Shown: positions 25,301 through 27,428 of the stretch, in pieces
Layout of the letters: every line of letters starts with the position of its first letter
Numbering within the stretch: position 1 is the stretch's first letter
Assembly (NCBI GenBank): GCA_965208785.1
Contig: OZ242356.1
Span: 1,538,929 to 1,602,928, forward strand
Direction: 5' to 3'
From: Acidimicrobiales bacterium
GTDB lineage: Bacteria > Actinomycetota > Acidimicrobiia > Acidimicrobiales > Bin134
DNA: 64,000 nt
The notes under the pieces: generated by a model
Database searches by the model: none
What the model saw: only the letters and a program-made list of their open reading frames with translations
Told to the model about the DNA's origin: nothing
Made by a program: the position numbers and the translations under genes

Positions 25301-27428
25301 GCTTGTGGTGCCGGTGGTGGCGGACTCGGTTGTGGAGGGCCGCGAGTCGTTCACCCTGTCGGTGGACACCGGGTCTTTGCCGTCGGGCGTGACGGTCGGC
25401 GACGCCGGTGAGGCTGTGGTGGTGTTGTCGGAGCGGCCTGCGGGTTGCTGGGAGTGTGTGTGGGTGGAGGCCGACCCGCCCGCCGGGGTGGACGAGGGAG
25501 ACGATCTGTTGTTCACGGTGTTGGCGTATCCGGCGCCGCCTCAGGATATGGATGTGTGGGTGTGGGTGCGCGACGAGTCGCCGAACACGGCGCATTACGT
25601 GACGGGCCGCTACAACTCGCGTTCCCAGCATTTGCGCATCCCCGCGGGGGCCACGTCTGCGGCGTTGGCGGTGCCCACCACCAACGACTCGCACCATGAG
25701 GCGAACAGTCATGTGACTGCTGAGATAACCGGCGCGAATGGGCCGCGCGACCGTAGGGGCCTGCCCGCGTTCAGCTACTACCGGCTCGGCGGCACGGCGC
25801 GTGTGGATGTCCGCGACGACGACCCGGCTCCGCCGCCGAGGGTGTACCCGCACCGGGCGTCTTTGTCTTTGTCGCGGTCGTCGATCATGGAGGACGCCGC
25901 GGATCCGTGGGTGCAGGTCGGCGTCGAGGTGTCGGCGCCGTTCACCCGCCAGGACGCCGTTGGGCTCAGCTACATGGTGTGCTTCGGCGGCGACGCCCGC
26001 CGCAGCCGCAGCACAGCCCAGACCGGCGAGGGCGACAACCACACCGCCTACGACTACCGGGTGTACCGCGACGAAACCGACAGCCACGGCAACACGTTCA
26101 AAGCGCTGAAGAGCTCGCACTGCCTCGGCGGCACCCTCAGGCCCGGCCAGACACAGGGCACGCCCATGCACATCCTGGTTCTGGACGACCACCACGAGGA
26201 CACCGGCGAGCAGATCCGCGTCACGCTCCAAACCTCATGGCGGATGGACCGGCTCGGCTACCAGGCCAACCCCTCCACAGCCACCCTTGTAATCCACAAC
26301 GACGAGAACACCCCGCCCACCGAACCCGACCCCGCCCTCATCGCAAAAGTCGAAGCGCTCGCCGCCCAAACACAGCACGGCGCAGCCCACGTCAACCGCT
26401 GGAACCGCGTCCTCCTAGCGCTCGGAGAACACGACGGCACCGGCGTCACCGGCGGCCCCATGACCGCGGCGCAGGCCCAGCAAATGGCCGACCGGCACTC
26501 CAGCCCCGTCTGGCAAGAGGTCGTCGCCGAGCTCACCGCCATCGAAACAGCCCCCCAGCAGACACCGCCACCGCCACCGCCACCGCCGCCGCCGCCGCCG
26601 CCACCACCGCCGCCGCCGCCGCCGCCTGAGGTGGGCATCACCGGCGGCTCGGGCGTCACCGAGGGGGGCAGCGTCACGTTCACGCTCACGGCAAGCCCCG
26701 CGCCCGCAGCCGACCTGCCGGTGAGCGTCACCGTGACCGCCAGCGGCGACTACGGCGCCACAACCGGCGCGCGCTCCGTCACCATCCCCGCATCGGGCAC
26801 CGCCACGCTCACCGTCGCCACCACAGACGACCACACCGACGAGGCCGACGGCACGGTCACGCTCACCGTCAACGCGGGCAGCGGCTACACCATCGGCACA
26901 CCCAACACCAAGACCGTCACAGTCTCAGACGACGACAACCCACCGCCTCCACCCCCGCCTCCACCCCCGCCTCCGCCACCCCCGCCGCCGCCGCCTCCGC
27001 CACCCCCGCCGCCGCCTCCGCCGCCGCCGCCTCCGCCTCCCCCGCCTCCGCCTCCGCCGCCTCCGCCACCTCCGCCACCTCCGCCACCACCGCCGGTCGA
27101 ACAAGACCAGCCCGACCAGCCTGCGTTGGCCGCCTGCGCCGGCCGCCCGACGCTGCTCATCAGCAGCCCTACCGCCAGCCGCGGCGACGCTGCCGTCGAC
27201 TTCGAGGTCAGCCTCAGCTGCATCCCCGCCAGCCGCCCGACGATCCTGCTGAGCCCGCTGCGCGACGGCAACCTCGGCCGGAACATCTTCGTCAACCTCT
27301 CAGCCGCCCAAATCACAACCACCGTCACCGTCACCATCGGCACAGAAAAACAGCTCGCCCTCGCCCTCGCCTGGAACATCGGCCTCGCCAACACCCAAGC
27401 ACAGGGCAACGTCCACTACACTGACTAA
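22353..27428 (+). CDS. Giant secreted/cell-surface repeat protein (~1690 aa): two N-terminal ~170-aa modules, several Calx-beta-like domains, two polyproline spacers
   Basis: GAGGAGG lies 5 nt before ATG 22353. There is a hydrophobic signal-like segment (VVVCWALAAALVSASLVVLPVDRAGA-QT) and a twin motif AQ(A/E)FTTGGN(A/S)GGY(T/S)L at ~22723 and ~23226. A Calx-beta pattern (TATAGTASADDYGAGPYTVTFAAGVTEGVLVVPVVADSVVEGRESFTL) is near 25.2 kb. The part of track ORF 21180-27428 upstream of 22353 is antisense to the transposase and was rejected. The exact start is uncertain. Confidence 0.7.
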   Translation: MFAKGRVGGVSCGVGASARVARPDGGGGGYPPSPGGLAWLCGRGAPAGRAGAGSGGRAGRARGGSGGRARWAGVVVCWALAAALVSASLVVLPVDRAGAQTAQTLVSNSGQANGGTGNFVQHDHAQAFTTGGNAGGYTLTGVDFSFPQITDAALASKLTATIRADDSGQPGTVVATLTKPGTITAGTNSFTHSGLQLTANTTYWAVLDVTALVAVALGANTIQNTTSDAEDAGGAPGFTISDTGHFRVWNASGSWLSFAQSRKMAVRGTAAPNFVGNLGQADGNLLALANDYAQEFTTGGNSGGYSLRTVDVEFAVVSGFSASSLTAGVYTSSGGVPGTSLGTLTKPASFPVSASDQTLTFTTSAGIELAANTTYFLVFDMTANEPHTHLRGTASNSEDSGALTGWSIGDSLLWRTSASTGAWNTSGESLKIGLVGVETLGCATADSSDGSYEVPHDWELKPAALDDGDTFRLLFMSSTERSASSTDIADYNTHVQTAAKAGHSAISDSCGDLFKAVASTSTVDARANTDTESTDTAASVWWLNGNKAADDYTDFYDGGWDSYARRNESGASRNIDFVWTGSNADGTKHASDYLGTAASARYGQPESGNNPINQNRNPAATNNYPLYGLSPLFKVEQRPTVSISAALVSAGEVSTVTLQAVLSEANSSGADLVIPLRVKSAGTTASLSEYSFTGTCDGSAAALNGTVTIPDGNEADIAWIWLCGDDVDEPDETVIVELGDLPDGWIAGADSEVAITVVDDDATEVSLSASDSVLTEQDASDTASFTVSLGRRLRAGENLHVPLEWVYGGVSLNTPGFADPHFSVSVSGTGVSGMDLGEDSFGVRFTGHDTDVVRTATVVATPTNSGDADADDEVFRAELPLLVSGDWTNAFTTVDGGGAPHADDDRVVFTMVDDEPKALVGFASGRVVVSEVSGEARVPVGLSAALGGQATVRFTATAGTASADDYGAGPYTVTFAAGVTEGVLVVPVVADSVVEGRESFTLSVDTGSLPSGVTVGDAGEAVVVLSERPAGCWECVWVEADPPAGVDEGDDLLFTVLAYPAPPQDMDVWVWVRDESPNTAHYVTGRYNSRSQHLRIPAGATSAALAVPTTNDSHHEANSHVTAEITGANGPRDRRGLPAFSYYRLGGTARVDVRDDDPAPPPRVYPHRASLSLSRSSIMEDAADPWVQVGVEVSAPFTRQDAVGLSYMVCFGGDARRSRSTAQTGEGDNHTAYDYRVYRDETDSHGNTFKALKSSHCLGGTLRPGQTQGTPMHILVLDDHHEDTGEQIRVTLQTSWRMDRLGYQANPSTATLVIHNDENTPPTEPDPALIAKVEALAAQTQHGAAHVNRWNRVLLALGEHDGTGVTGGPMTAAQAQQMADRHSSPVWQEVVAELTAIETAPQQTPPPPPPPPPPPPPPPPPPPPPEVGITGGSGVTEGGSVTFTLTASPAPAADLPVSVTVTASGDYGATTGARSVTIPASGTATLTVATTDDHTDEADGTVTLTVNAGSGYTIGTPNTKTVTVSDDDNPPPPPPPPPPPPPPPPPPPPPPPPPPPPPPPPPPPPPPPPPPPPPPPPPPPPVEQDQPDQPALAACAGRPTLLISSPTASRGDAAVDFEVSLSCIPASRPTILLSPLRDGNLGRNIFVNLSAAQITTTVTVTIGTEKQLALALAWNIGLANTQAQGNVHYTD
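22425..22439. repeat. Homopolymer G15 (five GGG codons if the giant gene starts at 22353)
   Basis: Counted directly. It sits in frame at codons 25-29 (PDGGGGGYPP) of the ORF starting at ATG 22353. Confidence 0.95.
26565..26627 (+). repeat. Run of 21 consecutive proline codons
   Basis: Counted from ACA 26562 to GAG 26628. Mixed CCG/CCA/CCT codons. Confidence 0.95.
26940..27095 (+). repeat. Run of 52 consecutive proline codons
   Basis: Counted from AAC 26937 to GTC 27096 (156 nt). Mixed CCA/CCG/CCT/CCC codons. Confidence 0.95.

Follow-up and report, generated by a model that had tools for sequence, protein, structure and literature searches.

Hyper-expanded polyproline linkers in a C-terminal cassette of predicted secreted proteins from a sponge-associated Acidimicrobiales bacterium

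Introduction

How does a bacterial gene come to carry uninterrupted runs of 21 and 52 proline codons, and what would such runs do in its product? The question is raised by a gene for a predicted secreted modular protein in a 64,000-nucleotide stretch of DNA (contig OZ242356.1, positions 1,538,929 to 1,602,928; hereafter the window, whose own numbering is used for this gene and its neighbors) from a sponge-associated bacterium of the order Acidimicrobiales. Consecutive prolines stall ribosomes and need the elongation factor EF-P, translation work treats runs of 3-5 prolines as a physiological problem, and no natural run in B. subtilis exceeds 4 residues, a construct with 20 prolines being an extreme test (PMC12856214); the longest run of the human proteome has 27 (PMC3556072). 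The explanation that we favor, with a probability only slightly above one half (about 0.55), is that the tracts are hyper-expanded inter-domain linkers in a C-terminal "stalk cassette" of a secreted protein, serving as polyproline type II (PPII) spacers before a C-terminal domain (CTD) that retains or sorts the protein.

Results

The two tracts and the modules that they join

The original prediction had placed a run of 21 prolines (P21, runs of other lengths being named likewise) at 26565-26627 and a run of 52 (P52) at 26940-27095, both written in mixed codons, and on translation the coordinates and counts proved to be exact. The order of elements in the C-terminal part of the protein is helical module, P21, beta-sandwich module, P52 and CTD, and the corresponding features of the window are as follows.

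22353-27428, + strand: gene for the predicted secreted modular protein, 1,691 amino acids, start uncertain
26316-26564, + strand: helical module, orphan, 83 amino acids, HGxAHVNRWNRVL...GGAMTAAQAQQMA...SSPVW...ELTALE, from alignment and AlphaFold2
26565-26627, + strand: P21 tract, linker 1, between the helical and the beta-sandwich module, imperfect (CCG/CCA)n array
26628-26939, + strand: beta-sandwich repeat module, 104 amino acids, with a Calx-beta-like "...TTDDxTDEADG...DDD" end; the module type is repeated in the family
26940-27095, + strand: P52 tract, linker 2, directly before the CTD, mixed CCN codons
27096-27425, + strand: CTD, about 105 amino acids in a 110-residue stretch, with an acidic VEQDQPDQP lead-in and the end ...YTD-stop

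The first tract is written with 15 CCG, 5 CCA and 1 CCT codons and was recognized by Tandem Repeats Finder as an imperfect period-3 array, and the second (26 CCG, 12 CCT, 9 CCA and 5 CCC) as overlapping arrays with periods of 9, 15 and 24 nucleotides (nt).

The helical module, which in the alignment shows two invariant His and two invariant Trp residues and has about 35 further copies (loci L002-L051), was modeled by AlphaFold2 as four helices with a predicted local distance difference test score (pLDDT) of 92.8, and in the family of CTD proteins it usually sits immediately before a proline tract. Its sequence gave no significant Pfam or NCBIfam family match and its model no fold match in the PDB. 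Weak matches to pterin-4a-dehydratase fell below threshold and were treated as noise, and a peptidoglycan-binding (PG_binding_1-like) fold was likewise dropped, the model being without any PDB match. The CTD, whose sequence includes VEQDQPDQPALAACAGR and two Cys residues that are invariant in the alignments of its copies, was modeled as a seven-strand beta-sandwich (pLDDT 91.5), and its best structural matches in Foldseek were CARDB and Calx-beta folds, with template modeling (TM) scores of 0.55-0.62. Searches of Pfam, NCBIfam and PDB sequences with the CTD returned no significant match and no known anchor or sorting family, and none of the curated sorting-domain models of the type IX secretion system (T9SS) kind in NCBIfam and Pfam matched it. 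The module between the two tracts had been described as Calx-beta-like, a label that is plausible, not proven: weak profile similarity was detected by hhalign both to the Calx-beta stretch of the same protein (E = 1.4e-3 over 43 columns) and to the CTD (E = 2e-4), and no Pfam Calx-beta match was found at 26628-26939 even at E <= 10.

To place the tracts relative to these modules, the contexts of all 24 tracts of at least 12 prolines in the genome were listed. Most of the tracts that belong to the family start at one of two kinds of site, either directly behind a helical module, whose conserved end reads ...ELTALEAAPQQT or, as a variant, ...ERLETCADNN, or directly behind the acidic ...DDDD with which a beta-sandwich module closes; they stop exactly where the following module, or the lead-in to the CTD (VEQDQPD...), begins. 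Because these borders match the ends of modules, and the flanking helical module and CTD fold confidently in the models (pLDDT >91), the tracts are inter-domain linkers in the strict sense.

Proline tracts across the genome

The genome is a single contig of 3.54 Mb with 65.4% G+C, and a six-frame scan revealed 20 runs of at least 21 prolines in it (80, 72, 58, 52, 51, 49, 48, 46, 43, 42, 39, 36, 35, 32, 29, 27, 25, 24, 22 and 21 residues). With 20 such tracts, the phenomenon is genome-wide and family-wide and not a property of one gene. Nearly all of these runs sit 100-330 residues from the C-terminus of open reading frames (ORFs) of about 1,000-2,800 amino acids, most of them are located in the same C-terminal cassette, and none of the 20 breaks its reading frame. 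Thirteen large tract ORFs finish in a CTD of the window type, with 56-93% identity to the window copy, and all 13 are in frame through the tract into the CTD. A profile search counted 17-19 copies of the CTD in the genome, carried by diverse passengers, about 5 of these copies being short fragments that resemble gene remnants. Among the long ORFs of the genome no run of any other amino acid exceeds about 15 residues, with the exception of a single run of 67 arginines that we assume to be an off-frame reading of a proline tract; leaving this run aside, the expansion is therefore specific to proline.

Some members of the family depart from the common layout. Short ORFs with a whole or partial CTD and without an upstream protein are found at C1:2199501-2200049, 2473753-2474181, 3401614-3402237, 1724249-1725076 and 2967828-2969078, one of the short CTD ORFs having a fused or truncated end, and they have the appearance of leftovers from recombination or decay inside the family. 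Two tract proteins (C1:3165967-3171645 and C1:3303088-3310704) bear, instead of the CTD, another tail of about 50 residues that contains Cys (...GHWF.YE.GPGCTSLGPG...YKCPD[NI]-stop) and that had no significant match in Pfam, NCBIfam or PDB sequence searches.

As to how rare such arrays are, (CCN)30 was sought in 400 genomes drawn evenly from the same phylum and was present in 12 of them besides the genome under study, which has by far the most matches. The matches of 8 of these 12 are mostly or wholly poly-C, several of them at contig ends, and are probably artifacts; about 4 genomes carry genuine mixed-codon arrays. The original description of the tracts as very unusual stands for typical bacteria, but it is tempered by the approximately 1% of sampled genomes of the phylum with mixed-codon (CCN)n of at least 30 units and by the 20 tracts of this single genome. 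Long polyproline linkers, rare as they are, thus occur elsewhere too; this genome stands out by how many it has and by their stereotyped placement within a single protein family. Within the genus, 9 of 36 genomes matched in a scan for (CCN)20, one of these matches (G020) being a poly-C contig end. The highest genuine count in a congener was that of a complete genome (G034), with 43 overlapping matches and an estimated 3 tracts or so, compared with 451 matches in the genome studied here, and eight single-contig congeners had no match at all, most of them also lacking the CTD family.

The same junctions in relatives

The closest counterpart for comparison is P0010, a collinear homologue with 64% identity over 1,204 amino acids, which has P7 in the place of the window P21 and PP in the place of P52, the gaps of the alignment falling exactly on the tracts. 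Together with the coincidence of tract borders and boundaries of folding modules, this finding supports the proposal of the original prediction that the tracts are inter-domain spacers. In 17 database relatives retrieved by a word-indexed search, P2-P11 follow the helical module and P2-P3 precede the CTD, and the last helix junction has the longest seed (P8-P11 versus P4-P7 at the others). The tracts of the genome under study are expanded relative to these homologues, and other assemblies show intermediate lengths (P16, P31, P34 and P42) at the same junctions. In remote CTD proteins the position before the CTD is taken by (VDPPV)n or (EDPVQPVVP)n, and a proline-rich spacer at this place is therefore ancestral, with composition and length free to vary; the genome described here is the extreme of this spacer-length variation. 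An orthologue of the window gene was also sought in close congeners, in which the helical module alone matched.

The availability of independent assemblies bears on whether the tracts, or their lengths, could stem from mis-assembled low-complexity reads, an explanation that we regard as very improbable. Poly-C artifacts are indeed common at contig ends in other genomes, but the tracts described here consist of mixed codons and lie inside the single contig of the genome, in 13 large ORFs the reading frame runs through them into a conserved domain, and independent assemblies have comparable tracts at the same junctions. Moreover, several contigs of short-read metagenome-assembled genomes (MAGs; L005, L016, L020, L022 and L024) start at or within the CTD, as if the upstream tract had broken the assembly, a fit that is suggestive and that we take as a hint only.

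Turnover and codon usage of the tracts

The original prediction had also proposed that these sites would be polymorphic in length, and this is supported by the one orthologue pair that could be compared at the DNA level. The gene at 2803842-2810585 of the genome and its orthologue in another complete genome (L006) show 98.3% identity across 3.3 kb and do not differ at all in the 90 nt that precede the tract, and nevertheless their tracts are P36 and P34, with a clearly different order of synonymous codons. Tract turnover is therefore much faster than that of the flanks, and it takes place in frame; across paralogues and relatives, junctions of this type carry anything between P2 and P80.

Each of the 20 tracts has an internal pattern of its own, for example (CCA CCT CCA)n, (CCG CCG CCG CCA)n or third-letter motifs of the TCGCG type, and the longest pattern common to any two tracts spans 11 codons, as compared with a mean of 11.1 in shuffled tracts. 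Because codon patterns are shared no more than in shuffles, the tracts must have expanded independently, via local slippage, and a copy-and-paste spread of one expanded tract among the paralogues was ruled out on the same grounds.

The codons themselves are not used at random. CCC makes up 8% of the tract codons versus 38% of the proline codons elsewhere, with CCG, CCA and CCT enriched, and no CCC-CCC neighbors were seen among 831 tract codons when 9.1 were expected, a zero that none of 5,000 within-tract shuffles reached. These values reveal selection at the codon level. Runs of C in the tracts are never longer than 5, long C runs being prone to slippage and +1 frameshifting. CCC is also, with CCU, one of the slow proline codons (PMC12856214). 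Together with the 13 large ORFs whose frame leads into a domain conserved in two phyla, this codon pattern fits tracts that are translated and kept in frame. An on/off phase variation was rejected, given that the repeats consist of one or more whole codons, that the 13 large ORFs are in frame and that CCC-CCC is avoided. A general repeat instability, or a loss of mismatch repair, was also rejected as the cause, since NucS is present in this genome, as it is in relatives, and only proline runs have expanded.

These data are of importance for the main rival of the explanation that we favor, namely, that the tracts are neutral runaway microsatellites. They would still be linkers, but their extreme length would be without function and would have arisen by upward drift in one lineage in which in-frame changes are harmless; the two explanations differ only on whether length matters. 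We consider this rival possible, and tentatively so, on the grounds that relatives function with P2-P11, that the lengths scatter from 21 to 80 without any mode, that every tract expanded independently, that the longest seed (P8-P11) was already at the last helix junction in relatives, which is the site that slippage alone would favor, and that a CTD family which is patchy and flanked by insertion sequences (IS) suggests weak constraint. However, it accounts less easily for twenty independent expansions in one genome versus 0-3 in complete congeners, for the growth of some tracts, including the window P52, from PP or PPP seeds, and for the strong avoidance of CCC and CCC-CCC, which points to selection on tract replication or translation; nor is there a general repeat instability on which such drift could draw.

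The remainder of the protein

The N-terminal part of the protein consists of a predicted signal peptide, two choice-of-anchor R domains, a region without family match and several beta-sandwich modules, one of which is a Calx-beta domain. The features that define this part are given below.

22563-22649, + strand: signal-peptide-like hydrophobic segment, read from the sequence, ending in RAGA|QT, an AxA-type cleavage site
22665-23660, + strand: two choice-of-anchor R domains (NF041539), the best stretch at 23178-23660 and the first copy at about 22665-23160
25092-25421, + strand: Calx-beta domain (PF03160), E = 8.4e-19, 68 bits versus a cut-off of 27 in Pfam

The stop-to-stop frame is open without interruption from 21180 to 27428 on the + strand, with the stop codon at 27426-27428, in a window of 65-70% G+C. 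Its likely start is ATG at 22353, with GAGGAGG just 5' of it, GTG at 22575 being an alternative. Homologues begin with the same hydrophobic signal-peptide-like segment. In the window protein this segment looks cleavable, and no other anchor is visible: a reading of the sequence found no lipobox Cys at the predicted cleavage site, and neither an LPXTG motif nor a terminal hydrophobic helix is present, the protein ending in ...QAQGNVHYTD-stop after the folded beta-sandwich. The choice-of-anchor R match is well above threshold (174.7 bits versus a cut-off of 30, E = 1.2e-51, in two stretches, NCBIfam), and the class presumably owes its name to the differing C-terminal anchors of its members. A region of about 195 residues at 23670-24260 (SYEVPHDWELKP...FRLLFMSS...WWLNG...DFVWTGSN...LFKVEQ) is kept in homologues of both phyla in which the family occurs (see below) and had no Pfam or NCBIfam family match.

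Distribution and genomic surroundings of the cassette

Among 185,579 species genomes, the CTD was found only in MAGs labelled Acidimicrobiales/Acidimicrobiaceae, which include Candidatus Poriferisocius and Candidatus Poriferisodalis, and Chloroflexota/Tepidiformaceae, the CTDs of the latter being 61-69% identical (loci L008, L009, L011, L020, L022 and L023). When 1.84 billion cluster representatives were searched exhaustively with a CTD profile, 47 clusters with the domain came up, the match lying nearly always at the extreme C-terminus, and a scan of JGI metagenomes with the CTD profile found no relative. Within the genus the CTD family is patchy and absent from most congeners. In relatives of both phyla the CTD genes are flanked by IS110 and other transposases (L066 and L067), and in the window the divergent upstream neighbor of the gene is of a similar nature:

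20964-22241, - strand: transposase-like ORF, with HTH_23 at the cut-off and HTH_29, HTH_28 and the rve integrase core below theirs

The transposase neighbors, the uneven occurrence of the family and a CTD identity of 61-69% between phyla together point to a horizontal spread of the cassette among sponge symbionts. Apart from transposases, no conserved partner gene was found beside the CTD genes in the neighborhoods examined (the window, L066 and L067), and no secretion partner was identified near the CTD genes of relatives. Downstream of the window gene, 28042-29996 (+ strand) encodes ordinary metabolic proteins, namely a CoA-transferase of family III and a PIG-L deacetylase, with no operon partner evident. 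Three of the Chloroflexota relatives (P0016, P0018 and P0019) combine a signal peptide and a PPDK_N domain (PF01326, PEP/pyruvate-binding), an odd exported passenger, with the same cassette and CTD.

The habitat of these organisms suggests a further explanation, in which the polyproline would mimic eukaryotic proline-rich motifs and bind sponge domains of the profilin, SH3, WW or EVH1 type, with effects on recognition or uptake. The bacterium and all of its cassette-bearing relatives, in two phyla, are sponge-associated, and PPII helices are frequent elements of host-pathogen interaction (PMC3707005). We nonetheless judge a host-directed ligand to be improbable: the classic readers of polyproline are cytosolic, whereas the protein would be exported by an extracellular symbiont in which no link to an injection system was seen, relatives from the same habitat have only P2-P9, and in the 24 contexts the tracts have no conserved neighboring residues that could confer specificity.

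Translation of the tracts

The original prediction had drawn attention to efp and its modification genes, and the outcome was divided, one EF-P gene being present in the genome and the known modifiers not being detected. The loop of this EF-P, VKPGKGGAF, keeps the conserved Lys and has Gly in the place of the second Pro, and the protein falls outside the unmodified actinobacterial subfamily with the PGKGP loop (defined in PMC12856214 and PMC11388002). The search for EarP was silent in this genome and in its control everywhere, which makes it uninformative. Proteins of the EttA type are absent from this genome and from most congeners, whose best matches to the EttA model are single ABC domains, and they are present in other families of the order. 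Four tRNA-Pro genes were found.

Such a toolkit could be read as a sign that the tracts act as a translational throttle, making the synthesis of surface proteins dependent on EF-P and coupling their expression, or their co-translational export or folding, to the physiological state of the cell. The known stalling of ribosomes at proline runs and its relief by EF-P (PMC12856214), the presence of a single EF-P with no ABCF back-up detected and the concentration of the tracts in one functional protein class would agree with it. But 2-3 prolines suffice for EF-P dependence, the tracts lie near the C-terminus, where nearly the whole protein has already been made, and the slow CCC codons are avoided and not used, so that we hold a throttle to be unlikely.

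Discussion

The data establish where the tracts lie, how far they exceed their counterparts in homologues, how fast they turn over in frame and that their codons are under selection; a PPII conformation and a spacer role for the tracts, and an anchoring role for the CTD, are what we infer. The cassette runs from the four-helix module through a proline linker, a beta-sandwich module and a second proline linker to the CTD. Its imperfect (CCN)n microsatellites lengthen and shorten in frame, slippage adding or removing one or a few codons at a time, and the short P2-P9 seeds that relatives still show have become 21-80 prolines at about 20 junctions of one genome. From the general behavior of polyproline, each tract would be expected to form an extended PPII segment, stiff and protease-resistant. 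With a rise of 0.31 nm for every proline, the contour would measure about 6.5 nm in P21, about 16 nm in P52 and up to 25 nm in the longest tract, and the segment would set the distance between the cargo or stalk modules and the CTD. The CTD probably holds or sorts the protein at the cell envelope or the surrounding matrix, a role suggested by its occurrence as a terminal module on diverse passengers, by the choice-of-anchor domains at the N-terminal side and by a cleavable-looking signal peptide without any other anchor. Translation through the tracts would rely on the single EF-P.

Several points weigh against this explanation. Homologues have 2-9 prolines at these junctions, and the great length may in itself be functionless; the lengths of 21-80 show no preferred value, and they rest on one assembly. 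Long polyproline is semi-flexible and not a perfectly rigid rod, since cis isomers occur in it and its persistence length is only a few nm, and the 16 nm given for P52 is a contour and not a guaranteed reach; the rigid rod of the original prediction, projecting the C-terminal domain or spanning the wall, is a conjecture. The CTD is, according to its model, only a generic Calx-beta/CARDB-like sandwich that matches no anchor family, and a place at the far, ligand-binding tip of a released protein would be just as likely. As for translation, the best EpmA match in the genome is below threshold and LysRS-like, and the ABCF linker PF12848, found in 8 of 14 control genomes, was not found here, the absences in the toolkit holding at the sensitivity of the tools used and not being proofs.

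A bolder version of the favored explanation can be conceived, in which the tracts are "molecular rulers" under selection. In-frame slippage would continually readjust how high a cassette, spread horizontally among sponge symbionts of at least two phyla, is displayed, and this lineage could sit at 20-80 prolines since its translation apparatus, with one EF-P of PGKGG loop and no known modifier or ABCF factor detected, copes beyond the runs tested so far. We regard this version as rather doubtful. If it were true, it would amount to a new kind of tunable stalk and to a new upper limit for the translation of natural polyproline. If, on the other hand, the tracts are only tolerated microsatellites, they would still constitute a clear case of linker hyper-expansion and would caution that MAGs built from short reads may be interrupted at genes of this kind. 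In addition, the genome offers a natural system for asking how far EF-P-dependent translation reaches and what enables it, and the uncharacterized cassette of four-helix module, proline spacer and terminal beta-sandwich, common to symbionts of the Acidimicrobiia and the Chloroflexota, is a candidate system for envelope display or matrix binding.

The closest analogue among known systems is provided by the stalks of staphylococcal surface proteins, in which a low-complexity, PPII-biased, extended segment lies between functional domains and a C-terminal attachment element, and in both cases the segment is thought to project domains away from the cell (PMC10367597). Unlike these stalks, which are of the Pro/Gly or Ser-Asp type and end in an LPXTG sortase signal, the segment described here is pure polyproline, is split by a folded module and leads to a folded beta-sandwich of 105 residues, whose attachment is only putative. 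The T9SS C-terminal domain of the Bacteroidota is similar in being a small terminal beta-sandwich, preceded by a linker, on many unrelated passengers; this likeness is one of architecture only, since the CTD matched no such model in sequence, its hosts belong to the Acidimicrobiia and the Chloroflexota and no secretion partner was identified. Contingency loci resemble the tracts in combining a slippage-prone repeat in a surface-protein gene with lengths that differ between close relatives, but in the present case the unit is a codon, which results in a change of length and not in an on/off switch, and frameshift-prone C runs are avoided. Finally, proline-rich linkers are known from secreted modular enzymes, such as the Pro-Thr boxes of cellulases, and they share with the tracts the location between independently folding modules of exported proteins, the rapid change of length and the imperfect DNA repeat. 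In contrast to these linkers, the tracts have expanded at about 20 junctions within a single protein family of a single genome and sit at stereotyped places in a shared C-terminal cassette, while close relatives keep 2-11 prolines. Taken together, these comparisons indicate that the tracts are an extreme, family-wide form of a known element, the proline-rich inter-domain linker, and that it is the extreme form that is new.

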